64,000 nt of DNA from contig CAZGBJ010000001.1 of NCBI GenBank assembly GCA_964523895.1, positions 93,633 through 157,632 on the forward strand, given 5' to 3'. Made by a program: the position numbers and the translations under genes. This DNA is from an uncultured Enterobacteriaceae bacterium. GTDB taxonomy: Bacteria; Pseudomonadota; Gammaproteobacteria; Eutrophobiales; Eutrophobiaceae. Of this stretch, positions 1,566-58,316 are shown piece by piece. The notes below the pieces were generated by a model. That model did not search any database and had not been told where the DNA came from. It worked only from the letters and a program-made list of their open reading frames with translations. Positions within the stretch are counted from its first letter, which is position 1. Each line of letters begins with the position of its first letter.

Positions 1566-2534
1566 CTACTTATCTGACATATAGTCAGATGGCTTTATGT
1601 CCTTGATTAGGTAGAGCGGTCTATTTTTCGTTTCGTTAAACACTCGCCCAAGATATTCACCGATTATTCCCAAAGCTAATAACTGGATCCCACCAATAAA
1701 GGTAATTAATACGACTAATGAAGGGTAACCTGCGACAGGATCACCATACATCATCTTCTTAATGATAATAAAAATTGCAAAAGTCAGCCCGGCTATCGCA
1801 GATAAAACACCCAGCATTGAAGCAAGTCTTAATGGTAATACTGAAAACGAGGTTAATCCTTCGAAGGCTAAATCCAGTAAACCTAAAAACTTCCATTTTG
1901 TTTCACCCGCGTAGCGCTCATCACGCTCATAGGTAATTTCAGCTTGCGAATAACCTACCCACGCAAACAGACCTTTCATATAACGATGTTTTTCTCGTAA
2001 CTTTAATAACGCATCTAAAGCGTTTCTACTAAGCAACCTGAAGTCGCCCGTGTCCTTTGGTATTTTTATATCACTTAGTTGATATAGAAAACGATAATAG
2101 ACAAATGAAGAGATTTTTTTGAAGGCGCTTTCACCCCTTCTCTTGATTCTTTTTGCATTAACAACATCATATCCGTCACGCCATCGCTCAACCAATTTGG
2201 GGATCAACTCCGGGGGATCCTGCAAATCCGTATCGATAACAACAACAGCATCACCTGATGCATGATCCAATCCTGCAGTAAGCGCAATCTCTTTACCAAA
2301 ATTTCTGCTTAAATCAATAATGGAGATACGAGAATCGTTATTATGTTGCCTACTCATTATTTCAAGAGTGCCATCCTGACTACCGTCGTTCACATAGATA
2401 ATTTCCAGATCAAGGTTTAGAATTTTTACTGCATCCACAAGTCTTGAATAAAACTCATCCAGCCCTGCTTCCTCATTGTAAGCAGGCGCAACAATGGACA
2501 ATACTTTATTACTACCTGTCTCTTTACTTTCCAT
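1566..2534 (-). CDS. Family 2 glycosyltransferase, polyprenyl-phosphate sugar transferase type (GtrB/ArnC-like), C-terminal TM helices
   Basis: LSIVAPAYNEE...IIYVNDGSQDGT plus the DxD region and two C-terminal hydrophobic helices typical of undecaprenyl-phosphate glycosyltransferases. Confidence 0.8.
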   Translation of the reverse strand: MESKETGSNKVLSIVAPAYNEEAGLDEFYSRLVDAVKILNLDLEIIYVNDGSQDGTLEIMSRQHNNDSRISIIDLSRNFGKEIALTAGLDHASGDAVVVIDTDLQDPPELIPKLVERWRDGYDVVNAKRIKRRGESAFKKISSFVYYRFLYQLSDIKIPKDTGDFRLLSRNALDALLKLREKHRYMKGLFAWVGYSQAEITYERDERYAGETKWKFLGLLDLAFEGLTSFSVLPLRLASMLGVLSAIAGLTFAIFIIIKKMMYGDPVAGYPSLVVLITFIGGIQLLALGIIGEYLGRVFNETKNRPLYLIKDIKPSDYMSDK

Positions 2535-2536
2535 GT

Positions 2537-3268
2537 TTATATTTTTTCCGCAACAACTATGATTGAAAGACCAAAAGGAAAAGAAAAATGTCCTATTAAT
2601 CTGGATTCAAAACTGAATATTTTTTCAAGTAACATATTAATAAGTTTAGGCGGCATTTTTAGTTTATTGCCTTTTTCTGTTGGAAATATTTTTTGTTTTA
2701 TTCTGTCAACAAGTGCTAGTGGAAATAATAAAGAATTAAAGTATGAAATAGTATCTACTTTCCAGCCATTATTTTCTATCAAAATTTTTAAATATTTGGC
2801 AGTATATCTTCTTTTGTGATGGTGTTGTTCATCATGAGCAGTCCATAAAAATTGATATGCCGGAACAGTAATGATTAACTTTCCATTATCATTCACGTAG
2901 TCTCTTAATACAGCCAAACTCTCAGCGTCTTCATCAATATGTTCTAAAACATCCAATAGTACAATTAAATCGTTATTTTTATTTATCTCCGCTGGTATCT
3001 TATCTGGCAACGAACCTTTTGACACGTTGCCTATCTGTCTGGCTTTCGCTTTAAGTAAGGCATTATCATCTCGCTCCATAGCAGTAACATCACCGTATTT
3101 TGATAGGAAAGCAAGGTTGTCTCCATTACCACAACCCGCATCCATAATACGGGAAACTTTCTCAAGATCTAAGCTTTGAACAACACTATCAATTATTTTT
3201 CGTCGCGCAACAAACCACCAATGTTGAGTTTCAACGTTATACATTTCATCAAATAATTCATTTTCCAT
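2537..3268 (-). CDS. Class I SAM-dependent methyltransferase
   Basis: MDAGCGNGDNLAFL is a glycine-rich SAM-binding motif I. The likely true start is the internal MENELFDEMY (residue 33 of the track ORF), which removes the overlap with trmJ. Confidence 0.7.
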   Translation of the reverse strand: MENELFDEMYNVETQHWWFVARRKIIDSVVQSLDLEKVSRIMDAGCGNGDNLAFLSKYGDVTAMERDDNALLKAKARQIGNVSKGSLPDKIPAEINKNNDLIVLLDVLEHIDEDAESLAVLRDYVNDNGKLIITVPAYQFLWTAHDEQHHHKRRYTAKYLKILIENNGWKVDTISYFNSLLFPLALVDRIKQKIFPTEKGNKLKMPPKLINMLLEKIFSFESRLIGHFSFPFGLSIIVVAEKI

Positions 3269-3290
3269 AATAAAATCAGCGTTAATTCTT

Positions 3291-4016
3291 TTATTTATTT
3301 TTATCCTGAACTTTTGCCAAAATGCCGCGCAAGATATTACATTCATTTTCTTCCAGCTGCGCACGATTAAAAAGCCGACGCATTCTATGCATCAATAAAC
3401 GTGGATTTTCAGGATCATGAAAACCTATATCGACCATGCATTTTTCCAGATGCTGATAAAACATTTCCATTTTATCCTGATCAACTAATGGAGAATCGCT
3501 CTCCAGTAATTCATTGCTGCTATCACTAATACCTAACAGGTATATTTCATAACAAATAAGTTGCACTGCAGAAGCCAGATTTAGTGAACTATATTCTGTA
3601 TTAGCAGGAATTTGTAATACAAGATTACATAATTCCAGCTCTTCATTACTCAGACCTGAATTTTCTCTACCAAAGACAATAGCAACAGATGAATATTTAT
3701 TTTCAGAAATTGTTTTAGCGCATTCACGAGGAAAAACTAATGGCCATGGTATACTTCTGATGCGAGCACTCGTACCAATAACCAAATCACAATCTGAAAT
3801 TGCTTCTTTTAAATCCGAACAAACAGTTGCATTAGCCAAAATATCGTCGGCACCGGTCGCTCTTGCGGATGCTTCTGCAGAAGGAAAAATTTTGGGTTCA
3901 ACAAGATATAACTTTTCTTGTGACATCGTTTTCATTGCCCGTGCTGCCGCACCAATATTACCGGGATGGGTTGTTCCAACCAGCACTATCCTCGTTTTAT
4001 CTAAAATATTTTTCAT
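3291..4016 (-). CDS. trmJ: tRNA (cytidine/uridine-2'-O-)-methyltransferase TrmJ (SpoU family)
   Basis: IVLVGTTHPGNIGAAARAMKTM matches the E. coli TrmJ N-terminus. It is divergent from suhB as in E. coli. The start probably lies at the MKNILDKTRIV methionine. Confidence 0.85.
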   Translation of the reverse strand: MKNILDKTRIVLVGTTHPGNIGAAARAMKTMSQEKLYLVEPKIFPSAEASARATGADDILANATVCSDLKEAISDCDLVIGTSARIRSIPWPLVFPRECAKTISENKYSSVAIVFGRENSGLSNEELELCNLVLQIPANTEYSSLNLASAVQLICYEIYLLGISDSSNELLESDSPLVDQDKMEMFYQHLEKCMVDIGFHDPENPRLLMHRMRRLFNRAQLEENECNILRGILAKVQDKNK

Positions 4017-4083
4017 TCTTGTTATTGCTTCACTCATGACTACTGACAACGTAGAATAACTCGTTAACTATTTGGAGAACACT

Positions 4084-4854
4084 ATGCATCCCATGCTCAA
4101 TATCGCTATCCGTGCAGCCAGAGCTGCCGGCGACTCCATTGTACGTGAAATGGATCGCGTCAGTGATATTTCGATTGATATAAAAGGAAAAAATGATTTT
4201 GTAACGGAAGTTGATAGACAAGCTGAATATATTATCATCGAAACAATTAAGAAATCTTATCCTGATCATGCTTTTTTGGGAGAGGAATCAGGAAAATCGG
4301 GTGATAGTGAATACCTTTGGATCATTGATCCGCTCGATGGCACAACGAACTTCTTACATGGCATTCCCCATTTTGCTATTTCTATTGCTCTGCAATACAA
4401 AGATCGTCTTGATCAAGCCGTCATTTATGATCCGGTAAAACAAGAATTATTCACCGCATCACAAGGTAAAGGCGCGCAACTAAATGGTAAAAAAATCCGT
4501 GTTAGCCCACAAAAAACTCTTGATGGCGCACTGCTTGCCACCGGTTTTCCTTTTCGAGAAGACCAGGAAGTCGATAAGTTTATAAAAAGCTTTAAAGCAC
4601 TATTTCCGATGATAGCCGGTATCAGAAGAGCAGGCGTCGCATCACTTGATTTGGCTTATGTCGCAGCGGGAAGGTTCGATGGCTTTTGGGAATTTAGTTT
4701 AAAATCGTGGGATATTGCTGCAGGAGTATTAATTGTACAAGAAGCGGGGGGTATTAGTTCTGAAATAAATGGTGGATTGGATTATTTGGAAAGCGGCAAT
4801 ATTATTTCTGCAAACCCAAAATTAATGAAAGCTATATTACAAAATATATCTTAA
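4084..4854 (+). CDS. suhB: Inositol-1-monophosphatase SuhB
   Basis: MHPMLNIAIRAARAAG matches the E. coli SuhB N-terminus, and the WIIDPLDGTTNF metal-binding motif is present. Confidence 0.9.
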   Translation: MHPMLNIAIRAARAAGDSIVREMDRVSDISIDIKGKNDFVTEVDRQAEYIIIETIKKSYPDHAFLGEESGKSGDSEYLWIIDPLDGTTNFLHGIPHFAISIALQYKDRLDQAVIYDPVKQELFTASQGKGAQLNGKKIRVSPQKTLDGALLATGFPFREDQEVDKFIKSFKALFPMIAGIRRAGVASLDLAYVAAGRFDGFWEFSLKSWDIAAGVLIVQEAGGISSEINGGLDYLESGNIISANPKLMKAILQNIS

Positions 4855-4897: not shown

Positions 4898-5368
4898 TTA
4901 CTGATAAGTACTTAAACTTAAGTTATTCCTTTCTAATAAATCATAACGGATACCTTCAATTCCTTGTAATCTTTTCAAGATATGAAACCTCTCCTGACTT
5001 TGAGACTCCTCAGGAAAGACACTCTTTAAAAGAGAGGATATTTGAACATAGGTAAATTCATTTTCAGGATTACCCGCCAAAATTCGTATATACAGTTGAA
5101 TTTTTGGAAGCCCATCTTGTTCAGCTTCTACTAATTGGATCCACATATTATCAAGTTTATCATTCGTCATTTCAGCCAATGTCTTAACACGAAGTTTTTC
5201 TACAGCTTCAAATTGACCTGTGAAGAACAATTTATTATGTGACCTCATATAATTACGATATTTATCAACCTCTGTCTCTGCATTAAGCCACCATGCAAAT
5301 ACAAAGCAGATTACAATGGTACAAGCTAAAATTAGATGACCTATACAAAGGCCTTTATATTTAAACAT
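4898..5368 (-). CDS. Hypothetical membrane-anchored protein (156 aa), last gene of the CotH/VTC operon
   Basis: Single N-terminal hydrophobic helix (LCIGHLILACTIVICFVFAWW). Sits 30 nt downstream of the CotH gene on the same strand. No recognisable family. Confidence 0.45.
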   Translation of the reverse strand: MFKYKGLCIGHLILACTIVICFVFAWWLNAETEVDKYRNYMRSHNKLFFTGQFEAVEKLRVKTLAEMTNDKLDNMWIQLVEAEQDGLPKIQLYIRILAGNPENEFTYVQISSLLKSVFPEESQSQERFHILKRLQGIEGIRYDLLERNNLSLSTYQ

Positions 5369-5398
5369 TATCTTATGTTTTCATCATTCCTATTAAAC

Positions 5399-8101
5399 TT
5401 ACTTTAATGAGTGATATGCACTTTGTTTTATATGGTTTATTGATTCCTCGCCAACAACAATATCTTTTTCAGTAATGCCATGAAGACTCTTGCCAGATAT
5501 TACTCCTCCTCGACTATATCGCGCGTTCTTTCGATAAAGTGCTATGGCATTCCCCTTTTCAACTGAAAATTTAATATCCTCAACACGTACAATGGATTGA
5601 TCTTTAACCGCAATACCCAATACACAATCAGCAAGCTGACTCTTTTCAACTCTCACTTCACTTGCTTCACCGACTGAAATACATTTATCGCCGGTACCAT
5701 TGATATCAACATGACTAATTACTGATTTTGAATTCATCAGATCAATTGCATCATTTCCAATATTGTAAAAACGCGAATTAGATACAGAGACATCAACAAT
5801 ATCCATATCCAATGCATCAAAGGCTGTGTTATTAAATTCACAATTTCTAATGGCGCCACTACTATATGTGACATGCAAAGCATCATCGCCTACGGAATTA
5901 TTACTTATGAAACAGTTCTCTAATTGAAAAGAATTAACATAATGAATATTAAGCTGCCCCGGATAATTAATCAGGTTTCGTTGTGCAATAGAACCGCCAT
6001 TAACGTTAATATGAGCCATGACGCTTCCAGATGCTTCTTTACCTTGTATCACAATACTGCCCCAGGCCTGATCCAGATCTTTTTGTTTAAACTTGATTGG
6101 TGATTCTTCTGTTCCCTTTGCTATTACTTTTCCATAAAAAAATAGAGAACTATTCTTTGCCATCTTAAACACCGTCCCGGGCAAAATGTTTACTGTTTGC
6201 TCTTTTGTGAAATAGCGATCCTGATTAACTTCTATTTCACCCGATAATACAATCTCACTCACTACTTTTTCTTGTGTAAGTAATTCCCATGGATGAAATG
6301 AGGCTGTGTCAGCATCATCAGGTAAATTATCTACTTTTTCAATTGTTATGATATTTGAAGTGATTGCATTTTTACCTGTTAGTTTTTTTGTTTTAATTAG
6401 ATCAGCACTCTTCGCTCCTGTGATTAAGTATTCATAATGCAATGGTGATTGTTCATATGATTCATAAACTTTTGTTTCAGCCCCGCCTATTACATTATTT
6501 GATTGGTAACTTTCTGTTACTGCAATACCTGGATATAATCGATCTAATTGTTTTTTGTTTAGTACAGGATAAATCTCACCCTCATAGATGCGGAATAATT
6601 TAATTTCCTTATCGTTTGAATTTGACACAATTGACCAAGGATTAAAATCGACCGGACTGTTACCAAATATCGAAATAGAAACTTGAAACTGATCCTTAAT
6701 ATTCTCTTTAATATGATAATTTGCAGAAATAAAATTTAACCTATTCGCTATAAGTCCATATCGATAGTTATAAACTGTTTTCAACGTTTCGATAGCATTA
6801 CTATACTCATTCATAGAAAAAGGTAGAACCTTACCAAAACGACCAAATTTAAAATAATCATCGGGTTGTTGACGATAAGGATCCGCTGCTAGTTCACGTG
6901 CAATAATGTCATCTGCTTTATCAAGCATGTCAGCAACATAATCTACAGTAAACCTTTTCCGCAAATCATAAACTGTTAGATCATGTTCATATCTTAATAC
7001 AGGATTTAATAGTATTTGTTTATAGAGAGGTGTTACCGAAAGCGATTCGGATGTACTCCAAAAACGAATATCCCATTCAATCGGTTCAAATTTTCCTAAA
7101 TAGGGATCAAAATAAATTCGATGGTTATGAAATAAATCATGATGATCACTGCCAACTAATTTATCCAATGCCCAAAAAAGATAAAATTTATTCTTATCAA
7201 AGTAAGTGTCAAAATTTTTCATAAACATTAGTGGGTCTGGATCGTGAACCGATTTTATAAACAGCTCGATATCTTCACGGTTACCTGTTGATTCTATATT
7301 TCTTGAGGCATCTTTCTTCCATAATCTACTGTCAAACCATAATTCCGGTCTACCACGATTTACATAGACTTTCTCAGAAAGTCCTCTTTCTATTCCAAAT
7401 GGATCCGGCATATATATGGTATCGCCCGAATATATACTGCCGGGCATTCGATTATTTTTACGTAAAAATGATTCATCTATTTTACTTAGAAAAAAATGTA
7501 ATCCATTTGTTTCATTATTTATGAAGACACGTGCAGGAAAATATTCCGGCGTTAATAATCCAATCGAGCGCGCCATATCATAACTCACCCAGTCTGTAAC
7601 AGTGGCCATGGTTGATGGATTAACTAAATTAAACTGACGCTCATTACGATAAGTACTAAAAGGTGGGAGCTTGATTCTGATTGATTTTTTTTCATATAAC
7701 CAATGTAAATCCATTCCTCCCCGATAACGAAACTGAGCTTCACTTAAAAATTCCGGTCGATCTACCTTTAGATGACCTTTAACAAATTTACCTTTAGCAC
7801 TTTCAGGCAAGTTCGATACTAATGACTCTAAATCTTTATTATCAGCATATAAGTAAAATGAAGGTAGGCTAGTCTGTGCAGGTAGTTGTTTAATTGTTAA
7901 CTGTTGGTAATGGCGCTCTATATATTCGTTAATAAAATAGCGTAAATGGTCTAATGTATAACTTTCTTCAATAGCCATTACCTTCTTATATTGCATCATC
8001 TCTCTTACGCCACCAAACACAATACTACTTAATATAGTTAAGATGAATAGCGCTGAAAGAATAGGCCAATATGAACAATGTCTCGAGTGACTAATATTCA
8101 T
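5399..8101 (-). CDS. CotH kinase family protein with N-terminal signal anchor and C-terminal right-handed parallel beta-helix (PbH1) domain
   Basis: Central region RYRGGMDLHWLYEKKSIRIKLPP...QFNLVNPSTMATVTDWVSYDMARSIGLLTPEYFPARVFINNETNGLHFFLSKIDESFLRKNN...IYSGD fits the CotH domain pattern. The C-terminal ~200 aa carry repeated NxxxGDDAL, NTAFDALDMD, NIGNDAIDLM and GTGDKCISVG units typical of pectate-lyase-like beta-helices. The N-terminal hydrophobic segment is WPILSALFILTILSSIVFGG. Confidence 0.75.
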   Translation of the reverse strand: MNISHSRHCSYWPILSALFILTILSSIVFGGVREMMQYKKVMAIEESYTLDHLRYFINEYIERHYQQLTIKQLPAQTSLPSFYLYADNKDLESLVSNLPESAKGKFVKGHLKVDRPEFLSEAQFRYRGGMDLHWLYEKKSIRIKLPPFSTYRNERQFNLVNPSTMATVTDWVSYDMARSIGLLTPEYFPARVFINNETNGLHFFLSKIDESFLRKNNRMPGSIYSGDTIYMPDPFGIERGLSEKVYVNRGRPELWFDSRLWKKDASRNIESTGNREDIELFIKSVHDPDPLMFMKNFDTYFDKNKFYLFWALDKLVGSDHHDLFHNHRIYFDPYLGKFEPIEWDIRFWSTSESLSVTPLYKQILLNPVLRYEHDLTVYDLRKRFTVDYVADMLDKADDIIARELAADPYRQQPDDYFKFGRFGKVLPFSMNEYSNAIETLKTVYNYRYGLIANRLNFISANYHIKENIKDQFQVSISIFGNSPVDFNPWSIVSNSNDKEIKLFRIYEGEIYPVLNKKQLDRLYPGIAVTESYQSNNVIGGAETKVYESYEQSPLHYEYLITGAKSADLIKTKKLTGKNAITSNIITIEKVDNLPDDADTASFHPWELLTQEKVVSEIVLSGEIEVNQDRYFTKEQTVNILPGTVFKMAKNSSLFFYGKVIAKGTEESPIKFKQKDLDQAWGSIVIQGKEASGSVMAHINVNGGSIAQRNLINYPGQLNIHYVNSFQLENCFISNNSVGDDALHVTYSSGAIRNCEFNNTAFDALDMDIVDVSVSNSRFYNIGNDAIDLMNSKSVISHVDINGTGDKCISVGEASEVRVEKSQLADCVLGIAVKDQSIVRVEDIKFSVEKGNAIALYRKNARYSRGGVISGKSLHGITEKDIVVGEESINHIKQSAYHSLK

Positions 8102-9162
8102 AAATTGCCTTTGAATTCAGACTTGGCAACTTTACGAAAATCATTCCGCTTTGAATATCTGCCTAAAACAAGATAAATGAAAAGAAAGCCGATCATACTG
8201 AGACAAACAATCTGCCCAATCGAAAATAGTATTGGATATTCTCGAAATGATGCACGACTGGGTAAAATGGTTGTTGCCAACTTATGATATTCAGCATAAC
8301 CAAACCATGACGAGGATTTGATGTGAGGGAAATATAACTGGAATAATTTATCTGCTTGGCAAAAAAACATGTTGAGACTGCTTTCTTCATGTGCAGTAAG
8401 AATGTTTTCTTTATTAGAAAATATTTCGAACTTTAATAAAAACGAAGTGTTTGGCATACCAAAATCAACCACGCTGAACAAACTTAATGTGACAGCCCCA
8501 TATGGAATTCCAAAATGCGTTACTAAATTAACATTCTCAATTGATTTTAGCTTTAAAGACTCTGAAATTAGTTCCGGCTTTTCTATGTTAACAGTAGATA
8601 GCATTTCAAAAAGTATCGGCCGTTCTTTTCGTTTTACTCGTCCAAAAAGAGAGTGTTTATCGAATGGAGTTAATTTTTTGTTATAACTTCTTACAGTAAA
8701 ACTTTTCATCCCTTCAGTTAACTCGCCACGATCGCTAAAGATTATTTCTTCTTTTTCTACTCTATTTTCCGGTAAACTTTCATTGAATACATGCATCAAT
8801 TCTTTATTCGTATTTAGTAATTCCAAATTATCAAAATCATAATAAGTAATGCTTCTGGTAAGTTCTCCATCATAAATAATTAGTCGTGGTTCTTTAAAGG
8901 GAACATCTCTAGAGATACCTCGAATAAAAGTGGATACTGCAGCAATATCCTTATTATCAATTAAGTAATAAGTGTTTTTGAATTTTTGATTCTGACAAAC
9001 ATTTGGAAAAGCATCATTAGCAAAGACATGAGTAACTGTACACGTCAAAATACAGACGGTGACTAAAAAGAGTATCTTTACTATAGAAAACAATGGTGAA
9101 CTTCTATACAGAAGATAAATCCTGATCGTAAGTAACCAGAGTAGCTCGAATAACACTATCAT
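8098..9162 (-). CDS. Hypothetical protein (354 aa) with N-terminal signal/anchor and C-terminal TM helix
   Basis: In-operon ORF between the DUF4956 and CotH genes. The 5' end overlaps the DUF4956 stop by 59 nt, so the true start is probably internal. The C-terminal LFSIGQIVCLSMIGFLFIYLVLG is a TM helix. No family recognised. Confidence 0.5.
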   Translation of the reverse strand: MIVLFELLWLLTIRIYLLYRSSPLFSIVKILFLVTVCILTCTVTHVFANDAFPNVCQNQKFKNTYYLIDNKDIAAVSTFIRGISRDVPFKEPRLIIYDGELTRSITYYDFDNLELLNTNKELMHVFNESLPENRVEKEEIIFSDRGELTEGMKSFTVRSYNKKLTPFDKHSLFGRVKRKERPILFEMLSTVNIEKPELISESLKLKSIENVNLVTHFGIPYGAVTLSLFSVVDFGMPNTSFLLKFEIFSNKENILTAHEESSLNMFFCQADKLFQLYFPHIKSSSWFGYAEYHKLATTILPSRASFREYPILFSIGQIVCLSMIGFLFIYLVLGRYSKRNDFRKVAKSEFKGNL

Positions 9163-9820
9163 TAGTTTGCAGTTTATTCATAAAACCAGTTTGCTCTTGA
9201 TTTGTTTTTATCTCCAATGTGATCTCAGTTCCTGCAGCAGAAACTGTTTTTGATTTTATTGAAAAGAGATCAGCTTTTTGCTTTATTTCATTGAGAACAT
9301 TGTCTTCTTTTGATGAATCAGATAGTTGGATCACTAATAAAAACGTATCGGCTACGTCTTTTCCAGAACGTGTTAAAAACAGCATAAAAACTGCAATCAT
9401 AATAGAGCCAACAATTGAAATATTAAAATAACCAACGCCATTAGCAATACCAACACTAATCGCCCAAAATAGAAAAACGAGATCCATACTATCTTTAACC
9501 GGCGTTCTAAAACGAACAATCGACAATGCACCAACCATACCTAAAGAAAGTATCAAATTGCCACTGATCGTCATTATGATCATGGATGTCACTGTACTCG
9601 CTAAAACTAACGAGATATTAAAACTGCGTTGATATAAAACGCCCTGATATGTTTTCTTATAAATAAAAAATATAAACATGCCTACAAAAAATGACATCGA
9701 TATATTAAGCAGAATATTTAATGTTGTAATTCTATCCGTACTACCCATAGACATTGCGATAAAACTTTTCTGTAGTACGTCTGCAAAGGTAACTTGATCC
9801 ATGATTAGTTGTCCTCCCAT
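9104..9820 (-). CDS. DUF4956-like polytopic membrane protein
   Basis: 238 aa with four hydrophobic helices followed by a soluble C-terminal domain. Its gene order matches the conserved VTC/DUF4956/CotH triad. Confidence 0.6.
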   Translation of the reverse strand: MGGQLIMDQVTFADVLQKSFIAMSMGSTDRITTLNILLNISMSFFVGMFIFFIYKKTYQGVLYQRSFNISLVLASTVTSMIIMTISGNLILSLGMVGALSIVRFRTPVKDSMDLVFLFWAISVGIANGVGYFNISIVGSIMIAVFMLFLTRSGKDVADTFLLVIQLSDSSKEDNVLNEIKQKADLFSIKSKTVSAAGTEITLEIKTNQEQTGFMNKLQTNDSVIRATLVTYDQDLSSV

Positions 9821-10518
9821 TTACGGACTTTATGGAAACGTCTGGCTAATGTGTATTTACTAATAGCCATTCTTTCGGAATTAATTGATGATAATACATT
9901 CTTTAAATATCCAGGAAAAAAATTGTCATACTTTATTTCCAGTATTTGTTTGCCTTCAAGAATTACTGGCATCATATCTTTTACAGATGAAAACAAATCA
10001 AGGTGGTTTATATTCGAACGTAAACCTTGATCAAACGTCACTCTAATATTAGAAACAGGCAAAACATAAGCAACTCGATTATATTCAACGATCACTTTAG
10101 GTTTATAGAGCTTTGTAACAAAGGTGGTGTAAATTTCATTAAGAACAGGGTTATTTTTACCTAATAGCACAGTATAGTTACCCAGACATACTTGTTCAGC
10201 CTCTTCTTTGCTAATTATCGCAACATCTTTTTTTACAATTTGCCCCTGTTTACGCTTTATCTCAAATTTTACAGACTCATTGGCTCCGTCACCGTAGGTA
10301 CGTAATCGAATTTTTTTTCGCAATAGATTTCCTGACTGCTTCTCATATAAGCATTCATCGTCGTGCGAATCAAAGTAAAGACTACGTACACGATAACCTT
10401 GTTGATTCTTACAGTATGCATCGACATCCATCAACGAATTTAATTGATGTAACGATCTGTCAGATTGAATCTCGTTGAGATAGAATTTTAATTCGTAACG
10501 TTTTGATTGTATTTGCAC
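9805..10518 (-). CDS. VTC-domain (polyphosphate polymerase-like, CYTH/triphosphate tunnel) protein
   Basis: KRYELKFYL...VRSLYFDSHDDECLY...KKIRLRTYGD...KFEIKRK...YNRVAY...IRVTFDQGL...ILEIKYD...ISKYTLARRF follows the VTC-domain pattern: basic tunnel residues and the RxR/KxK, RxTxD and EIK motifs. Confidence 0.75.
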   Translation of the reverse strand: MQIQSKRYELKFYLNEIQSDRSLHQLNSLMDVDAYCKNQQGYRVRSLYFDSHDDECLYEKQSGNLLRKKIRLRTYGDGANESVKFEIKRKQGQIVKKDVAIISKEEAEQVCLGNYTVLLGKNNPVLNEIYTTFVTKLYKPKVIVEYNRVAYVLPVSNIRVTFDQGLRSNINHLDLFSSVKDMMPVILEGKQILEIKYDNFFPGYLKNVLSSINSERMAISKYTLARRFHKVRKWEDN

Positions 10519-10725
10519 TGATATAAAGTAATTTATATTTTTATAAATTTTATTTAATAGTTAACAATTTCTTTAATTCTGAAGAAATATATCATGTATG
10601 ACTGACAATATATTTCAACTAGTACTTACGTTATTGATTTCACAATTACACTTTAATTTATTTCGTATTAGATGAAAGATTGAATAACTTAATGTTTTTT
10701 CACAATAATATCTTTAGTAAAAACA

Positions 10726-10786
10726 TGACAATCTTGTCACTTTATGACAACAAAAGTCATTTTTATCGATTCGATATCAGTCGAAT
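10726..10786. promoter_or_regulatory. Cluster of three palindromes, candidate enhancer/UAS sites: TGACAAtcTTGTCA, ATGACaacaaaaGTCAT, ATCGAtTCGAT/ATTCGAtatcagTCGAAT
   Basis: Perfect inverted repeats read directly at 10726-10739, 10744-10760 and 10765-10786. They lie 75-135 bp upstream of the sigma-54 -24/-12 element of pilin 1, which is the position expected for a bacterial enhancer-binding protein such as PilR. They could instead serve the divergent VTC operon. Confidence 0.3.
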
Positions 10787-10858
10787 TTATTTTTATATGT
10801 TTCATTAAATTATTGAATATATTAGGAATATTTATTATATCTGTGTTTCTACCAATTC

Positions 10859-10875
10859 TGGCATAAGCTCTGCTT
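10859..10875 (+). promoter_or_regulatory. Sigma-54 (RpoN) -24/-12 promoter for pilin gene 1
   Basis: TGGCATaagctcTGCTT has GG and GC at the canonical 10-nt spacing (consensus TGGCAC-N5-TTGCW). It lies ~95 nt upstream of the pilin ATG. The sigma-54-dependent activator PilR is encoded nearby. Confidence 0.55.
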
Positions 10876-10968
10876 AACAGTAAACACCTCAAACTGAGGT
10901 AAAAACTATAGTTTTTGTAATCAGTTTTAAACTTATATAAACAAATCCATACAAACGGAGATTTTATA

Positions 10969-11388
10969 ATGAAACAAATGAAGAAAATCACTAGTACAAG
11001 TGAAAGAGGTTTTACTCTTATCGAATTAATGATTGTGGTTGCTATTATCGGTATTCTTGCCGCAGTAGCAATTCCGTCATATCGTGCATATGTTGCTGAA
11101 TCACACGGTGGTGCAGCAATGAAAGGTGTAGGTGCTTATGTATCTCAATCTCAAGTATGTGTCGAAACAGGTGTTGGCTGTACTGAATTAACTACCAGTG
11201 CTGGTGCTGATGCTGCGGTCACTTTAACCTCTGTTTCTGAAGGCGCTACTAGCTCAACCGTCGCATATAACGAAGGTGCCTGTATTATTACTGCTACCCT
11301 TGTTGCTGCATCTGTAACCTATGTTGCAACTGTTGGTACTGCAGGTGGTGCAACAGCTGCACAGTGTCAATCTGGCGCAGGTCTATAA
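10969..11388 (+). CDS. pilA: Type IVa major pilin (PilA-like), copy 1
   Basis: Leader ends ...SERG followed by [24 protein letters not shown], the class III signal peptide and N-terminal helix. GGAG RBS. Four Cys residues (one C-x6-C pair plus a C-terminal disulfide loop). Ser/Thr/Ala/Gly-rich C-terminal domain. Confidence 0.9.
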
Positions 11389-11632: not shown

Positions 11633-12040
11633 ATGAATAATAAACACTCATCTCAACAGGGTTTTACCTTAATTGAATTAATGATCGTTGTTGCGATTAT
11701 CGGTATTCTTGCCGCAGTAGCAATTCCATCATATCGTGCTTATGTTGCTGAATCACATGGTGGTGCAGCTATGAAAGGGGTCAGTGCTTATGTGGCTCAG
11801 TCTCAAGCTTGCATTGAAACAGGTGTCGGTTGTACAGAATTAGCTACTAGTGCCGGTGGTGATGCAGCAGTCACTTTAACCTCTGTTTCTGAAGCTGCTA
11901 CCAGCTCAACCGTCGCATATAATGAAGGTGCTTGTATCGTTACTGCTACCCTCACTGCCGCATCTGTGGCCTATGTTGCAACTGTTGGTACTGCAGGTGG
12001 AGCAACAGCTGCACAGTGCCAAGCCGGAGCAGGTTTATAA
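11633..12040 (+). CDS. Type IVa major pilin, copy 2 (tandem paralog)
   Basis: Different leader ([10 protein letters not shown]). The mature protein differs from copy 1 at ~11 of 125 positions. AGGAG RBS. Confidence 0.9.
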
Positions 12041-12189: not shown

Positions 12190-13515
12190 TTATTTATTAA
12201 GACCATACTTATCTAAACGATAGCGTAAAACGCGTAAGCTTATACCCAATTTTTTCGCTGCCGCTGTTCGATTCCATTTAGTCTGCTCAAGCACTTCCAG
12301 AATAGCGTTTCGTTCTATGTCATCTAGTTGATTGACCAATGAAGCCGATTTCAGCTTATCTTGCTCGTTTTCGCCCTTACTTTTCTTGTCACTTAACAAT
12401 AAACCTTCTGGTTCAATTACATCGCTTTCAGCAAGCGTGAGTGCACGCTCAAGAATATTTTCCAGTTCACGAATATTGCCAGGGAAGTGATAAGTTTGAA
12501 GCTTACTTAAAGCCTCTGTAGATAAACGCGCTATCTGTTCTCCCGACTTATCTGCCATTTGCAACAAAATATGATTCACCAGGGAAACAATATCTTCCAT
12601 ACGATCTCTCAAAGCAGGAACATGAATTTCTATAACATTAATTCGATAATATAAATCCTTGCGAAAACTTTCCTGTTCCACCATCGCAGATAGTTGCTTA
12701 TGTGTTGCGCTTAAAATGCGTATGTCGATTTCTATTTCTTCTTGCGCGCCGACAGGTCGAATGCGTTTCTCCTGAATAGCACGTAATAATTTAACCTGAA
12801 GATGTAAGGGTAAATCCGCTACTTCATCAAGAAATAAAGTCCCTCCTTCAGCTGTATGAAGTAAACCTTCTTTATCAGAATCTGCGCCGGTAAAACTGCC
12901 TTTTTTGTGTCCAAAAAATTCACTTTCCATTAATTCATGCGGAATAGCACCACAATTAACCGGAACAAATGGTTTGTTAGTACGTGGACCAATATCATGA
13001 ATCATTCTTGCTACCAATTCTTTACCTGTACCCGATTCGCCGCTGATATGTATTGGTGCCTGACTACGAGCAACTTTATTAATCGTGTTATGCAATTCTC
13101 GAATGACGGTACTATCACCGACGATCGTTGCCTTTGAAGTATTATCACTTAAACCTGAATGCAAAGCATTTTGCACCACTGTTCTTAATGAATTTAAATC
13201 AATGGGTTTTGTCAGGAAATCAAACGCACCATATTTTAATGCCTGGATAGCACTATCCATACTTCCATGAGCGGTGATTACAGCAATAGGTATTTGTGGA
13301 AAATTCGCTTGTAATTCATTAACAAATTCTACACCATTGCCGTCGGGCAATTTCATATCTGTCAGACACAAATCAAATTTATATTGATCTAACAATAATC
13401 GCGCCTTGGCAAGATCCTCTGCGCAATGACAATCAATTTGCATCCGTTGCAGTGTTATCTGCAACAGCTCCCGAATATCTGGCTCATCATCAATGATTAA
13501 CGCAAGTTGCGACAT
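12190..13515 (-). CDS. pilR: Sigma-54-dependent response regulator PilR (NtrC family)
   Basis: REC domain (IIDDEPDIRELL...DMKLPDGNG), AAA+ sigma-54 activation domain (GESGTGKELVARMIH, GAFTGA) and a C-terminal Fis-type HTH. Very close to the P. aeruginosa PilR N-terminus. Confidence 0.9.
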   Translation of the reverse strand: MSQLALIIDDEPDIRELLQITLQRMQIDCHCAEDLAKARLLLDQYKFDLCLTDMKLPDGNGVEFVNELQANFPQIPIAVITAHGSMDSAIQALKYGAFDFLTKPIDLNSLRTVVQNALHSGLSDNTSKATIVGDSTVIRELHNTINKVARSQAPIHISGESGTGKELVARMIHDIGPRTNKPFVPVNCGAIPHELMESEFFGHKKGSFTGADSDKEGLLHTAEGGTLFLDEVADLPLHLQVKLLRAIQEKRIRPVGAQEEIEIDIRILSATHKQLSAMVEQESFRKDLYYRINVIEIHVPALRDRMEDIVSLVNHILLQMADKSGEQIARLSTEALSKLQTYHFPGNIRELENILERALTLAESDVIEPEGLLLSDKKSKGENEQDKLKSASLVNQLDDIERNAILEVLEQTKWNRTAAAKKLGISLRVLRYRLDKYGLNK

Positions 13516-13517
13516 AT

Positions 13518-15131
13518 TTATACCAGTTCACCTTGTTTGTCAGTGTGCATAAAATTCAGTCTAAATGTTGTGCCATATTCTGAAGTTGAGTGTAAATTTA
13601 AATTTGCCTGATTGGCCTCGCATAATTCACGAGCAAGATATAATCCCAAACCCGAGCCCTGTGTCTCTGTTGTAAAAAAAGGTTCGAAAAGATGTTCTTT
13701 AATTTTTTCGGACACTCCAGAACCCGTATCAATGATATCAATATACGGTCTTTGTATTTCCTCGTTAATATCACAAGATAAAGTAATAACGGGCTTGCTC
13801 TGACTATAACGTATCGCATTCTCACAAAGATTCCAGACAACCTGATGTAATTGAGATGGATCCATTCTGACAAGAATATTTTCTCTCATTACCTCAAGTG
13901 CGATATCTCCGCTGGATAAATTATGCCTGGATTCAAATTCGTTAATAAATTTTTTCATCCAGGAAATTATTTCAAAATCTTCTAACGTTGCCTGATCTCT
14001 GCGACTAATACTTAGTACATTTTCAATAATATTGTTAACACGAAGAGAATGCTCATTAATAATTTCAGTTAAGCGTTTATCCTCCAGGCAGATCGTATCA
14101 GATTCTTGCAATAACTGACCTGCATGATTAATTGCGCCCAAAGGGTTCCTGACTTCATGTGCAATACTTGCTGTTAATCTTCCTAATGAAGCAAGTTTTA
14201 GATGCTGGGCTCGCTGTCTCAACCTCGCTATATCTTCAAGGAAAACTAAGATCTGATAATTTATTCCTAATGTTAATTTAATAAATGAAACCTGCAACTC
14301 GGCTTCATATTCATTTAGTTTAATAATTACATTTTGCATTCCATTGTTATTTAGCCAGTCATCTATATAAGCTTTCAGATAGTTATTTATAAAATGGAAA
14401 ATTTTATGTGTGTCTCCTTGCTGTTGCCCCAATAACTGTTTAGATGATTCATTAATAAGTAATACATTCATATTGCTATCAAGAACAATAATCCCTGATT
14501 GCATGCGCTGAACAATATGCTCATTTAATTTTGCTAATTCATTTATTTCTATAGCCTGCTGCTCAGCCAATGCTTCCGTTTCGCGTACTCGCGCAGCTAA
14601 AAGATTTCCAATAATAGCTGTGATAAAGAATGTTGCACCGAGCATTCCAGCGTGAATGTAGTTTACCCTGTCGAAGAAGAGGACGAATTGAACATACAGC
14701 TCGTGTCCCAGGACAAATAGTGTTGCAATTGCAGCAAAAAGTATCGAGATCCTTCCTTCTCGTAGTATGCTACCACCAGCAACTGCAATAATGATTAACA
14801 GACCAAAACCGCTACCAAGACCACTGCTCGAGTACATCAATAATCCCAACATAATGATGTCTAGCAGGACATGAAATGCAATTTGAATATTAAATCCGGG
14901 GCTCTGCTGCAGAATAAACCAGCTAAAAATGAAAGCCGCAAATAAATAAATGTGGCTAGTTACTGAAAAAAAATGAGCATTCATACTACCCAATGGCGCA
15001 GGCAGTTGGCCTATGTAGACCAAAATGACAAATAAACCGGAAAGCAAAACTCGATAATTATTAAAATACCGTAATGCACGCCAATCCATGGATTTGGTCT
15101 GCTTCCGTATTATTTTATTAGCTTTATCCAT
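13518..15131 (-). CDS. pilS: Sensor histidine kinase PilS
   Basis: Six N-terminal TM helices, an H-box (ASIAHEVRNPL) and an HATPase domain (N, G1 and G2 boxes). Lies immediately upstream of pilR, with 2 nt between them. Confidence 0.85.
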   Translation of the reverse strand: MDKANKIIRKQTKSMDWRALRYFNNYRVLLSGLFVILVYIGQLPAPLGSMNAHFFSVTSHIYLFAAFIFSWFILQQSPGFNIQIAFHVLLDIIMLGLLMYSSSGLGSGFGLLIIIAVAGGSILREGRISILFAAIATLFVLGHELYVQFVLFFDRVNYIHAGMLGATFFITAIIGNLLAARVRETEALAEQQAIEINELAKLNEHIVQRMQSGIIVLDSNMNVLLINESSKQLLGQQQGDTHKIFHFINNYLKAYIDDWLNNNGMQNVIIKLNEYEAELQVSFIKLTLGINYQILVFLEDIARLRQRAQHLKLASLGRLTASIAHEVRNPLGAINHAGQLLQESDTICLEDKRLTEIINEHSLRVNNIIENVLSISRRDQATLEDFEIISWMKKFINEFESRHNLSSGDIALEVMRENILVRMDPSQLHQVVWNLCENAIRYSQSKPVITLSCDINEEIQRPYIDIIDTGSGVSEKIKEHLFEPFFTTETQGSGLGLYLARELCEANQANLNLHSTSEYGTTFRLNFMHTDKQGELV

Positions 15132-57836: not shown

Positions 57837-57980
57837 GCTGTGCCCTCTTTAAGAATAATTTCTTGGATTAGAATAAATGTTTAATTTTTAAAACGATACA
57901 ACAATATAGCAAGCATCATAATTGTTCATTCTTTAAACATCTTTTTGCCATTATGTTTCGAAAATAGTAAATAAAAAAAG

Positions 57981-58316
57981 AGTCGGCCGATAAGCCGGGT
58001 TCTGTCGTGGACAATCATTCATCTGGGATGCACATCACTATGCACCTCAAGCGACCTACCCGGAAACAGTGCGGGCCGCACCATCGTTTCCCTATTTGGT
58101 CTTGCTCCAGGTGGGGTTTACCCTGCCACTGTTATTGCTAACAGAGCGGTGCGCTCTTACCGCACCATTTCACCCTTACCTGCCGAAACAGGCGGTATAT
58201 TTTCTGTGGCACTTTCCATCGGCTCACGCCGCCCAGATGTTATCTGGCACCTCGCCCTATGGAGCCCGGACTTTCCTCTATTGAAATACATCAACAGCGA
58301 TTGCCTGGCCAACTCT
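57981..58316 (-). ncRNA. rnpB: RNase P RNA (type A, M1 RNA)
   Basis: The minus strand contains the universally conserved P4 elements GGAAAGTCCGGGCTCCATAGGGC... and ...ACAGAACCCGGCTTATCGGCCGACT at the 3' end, followed by a T-run. Internal conserved segments AGGGTGAAATGGTGCGGTAAGAGCGCACC and CAAGACCAAATAGGG match E. coli M1 RNA. Ends are approximate to ~10 nt. Confidence 0.88.

Follow-up and report, generated by a model that had tools for sequence, protein, structure and literature searches.

What might a polyphosphate polymerase, a polytopic membrane protein and an atypical kinase do together in a bacterium, and what does it mean that their genes stand beside those of type IV pilins? This question is raised by a cassette of five genes at positions 4898-10518 of a 64,000-nucleotide stretch, called the window here, from the genome of an uncultured Enterobacteriaceae bacterium (contig CAZGBJ010000001.1). 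The five open reading frames (ORFs) are co-directional on the minus strand and follow each other closely, with short overlaps of a few bases or gaps of no more than 30 nt. An initial annotation had described them as a tightly packed set between suhB and the pilin genes, encoding VTC, DUF4956 and CotH domains, and this layout is confirmed to the exact coordinates given below. In the interpretation preferred here, the five genes would form one envelope-spanning module, a polyphosphate-fed extracytoplasmic kinase that serves the type IV pilus; as a whole chain, this is put forward tentatively, with slightly less than even confidence. The bare triad of VTC, DUF4956 and CotH is already present in the literature, without an assigned function. 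New here are the conserved association with pilin genes and a fourth component, namely a CYTH-like protein that is predicted to face the periplasm and whose domain is found fused with CotH in one metagenome protein. The initial annotation had overlooked this second tunnel-fold protein, the beta-helix of the CotH product and the earlier mention of the triad at pel loci. The cassette consists of the following genes.

9805-10518, minus strand: VTC-domain protein, 237 amino acids (aa), soluble and basic (Pfam PF09359)
9104-9820, minus strand: DUF4956 membrane protein, 238 aa (Pfam PF16316)
8098-9162, minus strand: 354-aa protein (orf354), with a predicted divergent CYTH/triphosphate-tunnel domain between two membrane helices; start codon uncertain
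5399-8101, minus strand: CotH-type atypical kinase with a beta-helix, 900 aa (Pfam PF08757, PF13229)
4898-5368, minus strand: 156-aa protein (orf156), with an N-terminal membrane helix and a helical domain

Proteins encoded by the cassette

The VTC-domain protein matches Pfam PF09359 over model positions 1-230 of 235 (E 4e-38, 131.6 bits against a cut-off of 23), and its 237 residues contain no membrane helix, no SPX domain and no other Pfam domain. As a single sequence it gave no match in the PDB. The match came only with a profile built from 10 VTC orthologues, which found yeast Vtc4 (3g3q, E 1e-8) and, at E 0.017, the inactive Vtc2. Mutational work on Vtc4 identified nine residues needed for polyphosphate synthesis (bioRxiv 10.1101/2023.01.27.525886), of which six are aligned here, with the cassette residue given first: K11=K200, R71=R264, R73=R266, K88=K281, Y146=Y359 and R148=R361. 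These six tunnel residues are invariant across the 10 orthologues (alignment A4). The product is predicted from its sequence to be a cytoplasmic triphosphate-tunnel polyphosphate polymerase, and it is fairly probable that it makes polyphosphate. Because the window's genome also encodes PPK1 and PPK2, the VTC protein would be an extra, specialised enzyme.

The DUF4956 protein is recognised by Pfam PF16316 with E 5e-11 and 43.2 bits (cut-off 30.6). Four hydrophobic segments are seen by hydropathy and five helices in the model, followed at the C-terminus by an alpha/beta domain of ~80 aa in the order beta-alpha-beta-beta-alpha-beta. Its orthologues begin at the ATG at 9802 and share the invariant motif LSLG-VGALSIVRFR..K. 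A weak similarity to MgtC is detected (NCBIfam 3.5e-4, Pfam 0.045). The weak resemblances of the model to an ACT domain and to the MgtC C-domain serve as leads only, and a Foldseek search with this model returned nothing at E 0.001 or better. Export of polyphosphate through DUF4956 is conceivable, with the balance tipping a little towards doubt.

The third product, orf354, is matched by no Pfam or NCBIfam family, and the same holds for orf156; the VTC and CotH products likewise lack an NCBIfam match. An AF2 model of orf354 built from 12 homologues (pLDDT 78.7) begins with a long helix, continues as an antiparallel barrel and ends in another helix. In this model, residues 60-301 form an eight-stranded tunnel fold, which VIA-align superimposes on YgiF (5a60) with Z 13.6 (rmsd 3.9 Å over 187 residues). 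Further matches are to Vtc2 (Z 11.3), Vtc4 (Z 10.4-11.0) and many triphosphate tunnel metalloenzymes (TTMs; Z 10-12). Distant members of the orf354 family exceed the Pfam CYTH cut-off, which provides a link to CYTH at the level of sequence as well. On this modelled fold, orf354 is a divergent CYTH/triphosphate-tunnel-fold protein and the second tunnel protein of the cassette.

The ends of orf354 suggest where this domain resides. An N-terminal membrane helix or signal follows an Arg-bearing N-terminus, and a C-terminal membrane helix precedes a basic tail (7 Lys/Arg in 21 residues). The central domain contains two cysteines, C56 and C268, which are invariant among the 15 closest sequences. Because of the Arg-bearing start, the basic tail and the two invariant cysteines, the predicted location of the tunnel domain is the periplasmic side.

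The orf354 family is small. A profile search of 1.84 billion representatives yielded 181 members at E 1e-3 or better and 61 at 1e-30 or better. The family occurs in 2 of the 400 genomes of a class-wide sample, too few for a census; a scan of genome contigs with the orf354 alignment found only four close metagenome-assembled genomes, and a metagenome pattern scan with alignment A2 found 15 contigs, mostly short. One relative is particularly informative. In P0245, from a JGI metagenome contig, a single protein of 1196 aa carries a CotH domain (239-501) in its N-terminal part and an orf354-like CYTH domain (936-1116) in its C-terminal part, and this fusion places the two domains together. The P0245 gene lies beside one for a class A penicillin-binding protein, and no VTC or DUF4956 gene occurs within 8 kb of it.

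The largest product is assigned to CotH by Pfam PF08757 over model positions 2-319 of 322 (E 8e-22, 78.5 bits against a cut-off of 23.8), and it matches the solved B. cereus CotH structure 5jd9 with E 8.7e-6. Its architecture comprises a membrane helix (14-32), the CotH domain (~125-448) and a right-handed beta-helix (719-860; Pfam Beta_helix PF13229, E 3e-10), and it is shared by 117 CotH homologues. The CotH motif reads HHD-x3-N...EPIEWD, where N326 is conserved and D344 is invariant and stands at the position of B. subtilis D251. D228 and D251 are the catalytic residues of the B. subtilis enzyme (PMC7821199). By hydropathy and charge, the lone N-terminal membrane helix, preceded by basic residues, would leave the following 868 residues outside. 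With this match, the three family assignments of the initial annotation stand, each above its cut-off, and the topology it had assumed fits as well: VTC soluble, DUF4956 polytopic and CotH exposed beyond a single helix. Direct use of exported polyphosphate by CotH is doubtful. The idea that CotH might be an effector injected by an intracellular bacterium was dropped, as supporting context for it was not found.

The last product, orf156, has an N-terminal membrane helix (7-25) with basic residues before it and a helical domain of 131 aa. Its orthologue in Microbulbifer is detected by BLASTP at 4e-24. A TPR-like fold (Atlas score 0.89, TM below 0.5) is a lead only. Small proteins are also encoded after CotH at loci L034 and L035, the latter a weak Pfam TPR match in the same position, and BLASTP found no similarity between them and orf156. 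A 274-aa Sulfurovum protein that had been considered as a relative of orf354 was rejected as unrelated.

Genomic partners and neighbours

In a sample with one genome per genus, 5643 of 36145 genera have VTC. Of 300 carriers, 246 have a DUF4956 gene no more than 5 kb from VTC, with 45/75, 129/150 and 69/75 in three bands of likeness, as against 0 at random places. The corresponding figure for CotH is 108 of 300 (30/75, 54/150 and 21/75), compared with fewer than 3 at random. Co-occurrence beyond chance, which the initial annotation had claimed for the triad, is thereby borne out. A reverse check in 401 Pseudomonadota genomes points the same way: all seven CotH genes of ~860-1030 aa adjoin VTC and DUF4956, whereas none of seven CotH genes of other architectures in that sample do. 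In other words, VTC and DUF4956 are a near-obligate pair, and a particular class of CotH is their frequent third partner.

A single genus, g396, accounts for most of the CotH genes that turned up in Pseudomonadota; L068 and L088 are examples. There, CotH is the C-terminal part of proteins of 1400-2270 aa, which resemble the Sfz6 stalk-associated proteins of Zetaproteobacteria (PMC8250860), and VTC and DUF4956 are not nearby.

These counts also bear on a simpler explanation, according to which VTC and DUF4956 serve as an alternative system of polyphosphate storage or phosphate homeostasis, with a cytoplasmic or periplasmic deposit, and the other three products are envelope proteins with a structural or adhesive role that transfer no phosphoryl group to a particular substrate. 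VTC and DUF4956 do occur without CotH in about two thirds of carriers. Some CotH proteins are adhesins and not enzymes, as in the fungal CotH invasins, and orf354 lacks the catalytic TTM residues. Moreover, the weak likeness of DUF4956 to MgtC is relevant here, as MgtC was tied to phosphate metabolism by the authors of a study on S. intermedius (PMC12345266). However, PPK1 and PPK2 are available for ordinary polyphosphate metabolism, the metal-binding Asp/Asn motif is conserved across the CotH family, and the CotH-CYTH fusion of P0245 exists. Additionally, in L049:4302-8924 an APH-family kinase of 576 aa replaces CotH upstream of DUF4956, VTC and a CYTH-like gene, beside a polysaccharide flippase gene; a different kinase in the position of CotH argues that the kinase is a functional part of the module. 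A role in storage is accordingly considered improbable.

The envelope-spanning module proposed here is further distinguished by its surroundings, which are listed below.

10969-11388 and 11633-12040, plus strand: tandem pair of type IV pilin genes, recognised by Pfam N_methyl and by NCBIfam pilin models, the candidate target
10519-10968, no strand: divergent control region, ~23% guanine-plus-cytosine (GC), between the cassette and pilin gene 1
12190-15131, minus strand: pilR (sigma-54 activator) and pilS (Pfam on pilR; synteny in G001, G006, G007 and G003)
4072-4854, plus strand: suhB, inositol monophosphatase family (Pfam E 2e-74, NCBIfam PRK10757; synteny)

The five-gene cassette adjoins a pilin gene in 16 of 16 informative genomes or contigs, that is, those in which the sequence continues for at least ~800 bp past the cassette end in question. 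The count began from homologues of the 900-aa CotH, which were followed back to the contigs that carry them, and the Microbulbifer pilin was taken from Pfam annotation. Chance adjacency is put at ~0.5%, given the five pilin-like ORFs that the window's genome yields with the pattern used for detection. The hosts include Microbulbifer rhizosphaerae (Cellvibrionales; assembly GCA_014191725.1), Ca. Thiodiazotropha (Chromatiales), the genus of the window and three further lineages, and the full form elsewhere includes orthologues of orf354 and orf156.

The arrangement of the pilin genes varies. They are divergent from VTC in the window, in its congeners G001 and G006 and in L033; co-directional and just upstream of VTC in six metagenome contigs; convergent, after orf156, in Microbulbifer, Thiodiazotropha, L032 and L064; and co-directional downstream in L034. 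In a quick CotH tree, seven pilin-linked forms make up one clade with support 100; L034 falls together with two forms from polysaccharide loci. Because the tree gives one clade and one outlier, the 16 pilin-adjacent cases are probably not independent events. On the whole, the cassette probably serves the pilus. Full-text literature searches returned no paper linking CotH to type IV pili.

The pilins themselves show some particular features. The two in the window are 87% identical in a protein alignment and have four cysteines each, their genes form a 300-nt direct repeat of 86% identity, and the proteins are unusually acidic, with 2 Lys/Arg against 7 Asp/Glu. A third pilA-like gene of the window's genome, at G000:C13:34278-34706, encodes the same N-terminal 30 residues as the window pilins. 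Four cysteines are found in 22 of 24 distinct cassette-adjacent sequences, which represent three pilin types, whereas the seven pilins of cassette-less congeners have two. This comparison sets the window, L007, L008, L025, L026, L029, L031-L034 and L058-L064 against L036-L042, and the four-cysteine pattern may simply track shared ancestry.

Relatives of the triad in other surroundings lead to the principal alternative, namely that the module modifies a surface polysaccharide or glycoconjugate and not pilin. CotH, with its beta-helix as a guide, would then act on glycans as a kinase or phosphotransferase, and the flank of pilA would be a hot spot for surface islands. A deeply different DUF4956-CotH-VTC triad lies beside sugar-nucleotide and glycosyltransferase-like ORFs, judged from N-termini only, in congeners G004 and G008. 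Triads without the CYTH-like protein, in Sulfurovum and L035, belong to polysaccharide loci with an ABC transporter, GT4 genes and an inorganic pyrophosphatase. The pyrophosphatase gene directly follows DUF4956 in L027:13966-14610 and L035:12442-13089; none is present in the pilin-linked cassette.

The same triad is known from Gram-positive bacteria. Genes for CotH, a polyphosphate polymerase and DUF4956, in some cases with DUF4832, were described as accessory genes of pel loci (bioRxiv 10.1101/768473), and the triad also occurs in NELoc-2 of C. perfringens (PMC2879425). In S. intermedius (SIR_1592-1594), mutation of the DUF4956-like or the CotH-like gene reduces Pel levels and aggregation, and the authors found the synteny of the triad only at pel loci (PMC12345266). 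The present locus contradicts this last statement and widens the picture.

The interval between suhB and the pilins offers further evidence for a glycan target. In G007, it contains a glycan-synthesis island of ~16 kb, confirmed by Pfam (G007:C5:94758-111229; L046, L019), with two GT2 genes, one GT4 gene, a C-methyltransferase, an epimerase and large polytopic proteins encoded directly after the pilins. In G003, it spans ~26 kb (G003:C5:101334-127161; L022, L047, L048), and its ORFs, which have no counterpart in the window's genome, resemble glycosyltransferase and radical-SAM genes as judged from N-termini only, with two ~635-aa polytopic proteins directly after the pilins. Because these congeners carry glycan islands there, the interval is a replaceable slot, and suhB and pilR/pilS are conserved boundaries on either side of it. 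Glycan islands with large polytopic proteins in this slot are, at the same time, what is expected of a pilin-accessory region. The polytopic post-pilin proteins of G007 and G003 (518 and 633-638 aa) have no Pfam family and are candidate pilin glycosyltransferases; similar genes for 644 and 593 aa follow the pilins of L034.

Two properties of the CotH product fit a glycan target as well. Its beta-helix is a fold typical of carbohydrate-binding or carbohydrate-processing proteins. The Fam20 kinase family includes glycan kinases. A distant relationship of CotH to that family is stated in PMC7821199. However, the five-gene form with the CYTH-like protein is never found in a polysaccharide locus and stays next to pilins through several rearrangements, and the conserved cassette contains no glycosyltransferase. 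A hot spot alone also fails to explain adjacency in Cellvibrionales and Chromatiales, where the surroundings of pilA differ. A glycan in place of pilin as the target is therefore somewhat unlikely. The proposal of the initial annotation that the neighbouring pilins are the target receives real support from this adjacency; the probable derivation of the linkage from one or two origins and the possibility of a glycan target count against it.

Composition, age and flanks of the cassette

The AT-richness of the cassette, from which the initial annotation had concluded horizontal acquisition, is real: the cassette has 33.6% GC compared with 39.1% for the 2.57-Mb genome, and only 0.45% of windows of the same size are equally AT-rich. 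Synonymous codon usage, in contrast, is that of the genome. Measured against 1267 long ORFs from the window's own genome, the five genes have z values of -0.4 to +1.6, and their GC at third codon positions lies within 1.6 standard deviations. The deficit is located mainly at codon positions 1 and 2 and therefore reflects amino-acid make-up. AT-richness by itself overstates the case for foreign DNA.

Could the cassette nonetheless be a recently acquired genomic island, AT-rich by foreign origin and next to the pilins by accident? Apart from its low GC, its patchy distribution would agree with this. A cassette orthologue is found with the CotH query in only 3 of the 23 genomes of the genus, the deeply different triad of G004 and G008 is located elsewhere, and the content of the slot differs among species. 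However, an Rfam scan and a repeat search found no tRNA, integrase, insertion sequence element or att-like repeat flanking the cassette. Mobility genes are absent, and the choice of synonymous codons is not atypical; the data thus lend no support to recent transfer. Moreover, the order of the genes and their position from suhB to the pilins are identical in G001, G006 and several metagenome relatives. The VTC and DUF4956 proteins are 84-89% identical to their orthologues, which is comparable to the flanking core genes, and CotH (62-71%), orf354 (47-60%) and orf156 (33-56%) diverge faster. Because order, position and identity are kept in these relatives, the cassette is considered old in its lineage, and a recent island is highly improbable. 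Both this scenario and a role restricted to storage fit the data less well than a glycan target does.

The divergent region that separates the cassette from pilin gene 1 can be read as a control region from the positions of its elements. A sigma-54-like site, TGGCAT-N5-CTGCT, lies at 10859-10874 on the plus strand, 95 nt ahead of pilin gene 1, and TGTCA/TGACA repeats are found ~100 nt upstream of it, at about 10724-10757. This is the layout expected for a pilin promoter activated by PilR. Scans for sigma-70, terminator and sigma-54 patterns gave matches not above shuffled expectation, and for this reason the reading follows from position only. Neither the stretch ahead of pilin gene 2 nor the strand of the cassette showed a similar site.

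Two further observations concern the wider window. Beyond spoU, positions 1566-3364 contain genes for a GT2 glycosyltransferase and a methyltransferase (family names taken from L023 orthologues); this patch is absent from the corresponding place in G007 and forms a second variable patch flanking the locus. The sole Rfam match in the window is a bacterial class A RNase P RNA at 57975-58316 on the minus strand (347.6 bits). A search of sequencing runs listed three DNA sets, from subsurface metagenomes that are perhaps the source sample, and no RNA set.

A proposed route from polyphosphate to the pilus

The gene layout, family matches, folds, topology signals, conservation and neighbourhoods described above are the observations from which we infer each further step of the mechanism. 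The soluble VTC protein would polymerise polyphosphate from nucleoside triphosphate in the cytoplasm, as yeast Vtc4 does. DUF4956 would anchor VTC at the inner membrane and pass the nascent chain outward, taking the role of the Vtc1 ring despite its unrelated sequence. The tethered CYTH/TTM-fold domain of orf354 would receive, hold or trim the chain in the periplasm. The membrane-anchored CotH, positioned by its beta-helix and perhaps by orf156, would then take polyphosphate as the phosphoryl donor without the need for periplasmic ATP. Pilin subunits, or a glycan attached to them, would be modified before assembly, and the pilus would change in surface charge and in behaviour. Related triads without the CYTH-like protein may act in the same way on polysaccharides.

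Several points weigh against this interpretation. In the VTC protein, the equivalents of Vtc4 E426 (metal), S457 and K458 are unaligned, and a profile of the C-terminal part of VTC gave no match in the PDB; K458 is the residue that separates active Vtc4 from inactive Vtc2/3 (bioRxiv 10.1101/2023.01.27.525886). The last VTC strands do contain an invariant E194 and an invariant S220-K221-Y222, which are candidate equivalents by position only. For orf354, no direct match to Pfam CYTH (PF01928) was obtained even at E up to 5. In its model, the ExExK metal motif is absent, the strand from residue 62 onward reading N-T-Y-Y-L; the position of this strand is conserved in the family and aligns to the start of YgiF. 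Without the motif, binding is more likely than catalysis. The AF2 model of DUF4956 has low confidence (pLDDT 64.7), and the topology of all cassette proteins is called from hydropathy and charge. The CotH aspartate nearest to B. subtilis D228 is D322 of the HHD motif, shifted by one residue in the HMMER alignment.

Other points concern the pathway as a whole. The pilin link may go back to one or two origins and have been retained through rearrangements. The target could be a glycan, because relatives of the triad sit in polysaccharide loci. Pattern scans found no promoter common to the cassette and the pilin genes. Finally, the literature searched contains no report of activity for a bacterial VTC, a DUF4956 or a non-sporulation CotH protein, and no paper characterising a bacterial VTC-domain or DUF4956 protein. 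It is unlikely that the locus represents, in every part, the first bacterial machine in which polyphosphate is made at the inner face, threaded to the periplasm and used as a donor by a CotH-family kinase that decorates type IV pilin.

Known systems provide partial parallels. The cassette resembles the eukaryotic VTC complex (Vtc4/Vtc3 or Vtc2/Vtc1) in outline without being a member of it. The catalytic domains are homologous and are, in both cases, tied genetically to a small polytopic membrane protein, and the non-catalytic tunnel proteins Vtc2/3 are mirrored by the second, probably non-catalytic orf354. In contrast to the eukaryotic complex, the cassette has neither SPX nor a Vtc1-type domain, its polymerase is separate and soluble, its DUF4956 is unrelated to Vtc1, its second tunnel protein is predicted to be periplasmic, and a kinase is included. 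Coupled synthesis and translocation of polyphosphate have been demonstrated in yeast only (bioRxiv 10.1101/2023.01.27.525886; PMC9911596).

The set at pel loci shares with the cassette three contiguous families, a CotH that is predicted to be secreted and an association with a surface polymer. Its DUF4956 is predicted to combine an MgtC-like membrane domain with a cytoplasmic ACT-like domain. It differs in its Gram-positive hosts and Pel context, in a CotH with FN3 instead of a beta-helix, and in the lack of the CYTH-like protein and pilins. Bacillus CotH belongs to the same Pfam family as the cassette CotH, which matches its structure 5jd9, and has the conserved Asn and the metal-binding Asp (D251). 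That enzyme, however, is of ~360 aa, works in the mother cell with ATP and acts on the Ser-rich coat proteins CotB and CotG, whereas the cassette domain stands behind a membrane anchor, is fused to a beta-helix, belongs to a non-sporulating Gram-negative bacterium and has its catalytic-base Asp offset by one.

The tunnel fold of orf354 residues 60-301 is shared with YgiF, CyaB-type class IV cyclases and thiamine triphosphatase. Known CYTH proteins are soluble, cytoplasmic and ExExK-bearing, unlike orf354, which has no ExExK motif and whose domain, predicted to be periplasmic, lies between two membrane helices.

Pilin modification is another field in which comparable genes are found. Accessory genes flank pilA in P. 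aeruginosa (tfpO, tfpW, tfpX, tfpY, tfpZ), and Neisseria possesses the phospho-form transferases PptA and PptB. Such genes travel with particular pilin alleles and act in the periplasm without ATP, and decoration with phospho-forms alters the behaviour of the pilus. Pfam and NCBIfam searches revealed no homology of the five products to TfpO/PglL, TfpW or PptA, which are of the O-antigen-ligase, GT-C and sulfatase types. The proposed donor also differs, being polyphosphate rather than lipid-linked glycans or phospholipids.

What the locus means for bacterial biology depends on the target. Two questions become testable with it, namely how polyphosphate leaves the bacterial cytoplasm and what fuels phosphorylation in the ATP-free periplasm. 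Polyphosphate has been reported outside bacterial cells, and we know of no bacterial polyphosphate exporter. For VTC genes, which almost always occur with DUF4956, the pilin-linked five-gene form supplies a concrete substrate hypothesis. If a glycan is the target, the module would explain the so far unexplained accessory genes of streptococcal and clostridial Pel loci. If pilin is the target, it would represent a new surface chemistry of pili, with a bearing on adhesion, aggregation and recognition by phages or predators. If the polyphosphate relay holds true, it would add a new class to the known pilus modifications and show how a kinase can function in a compartment that is free of ATP.

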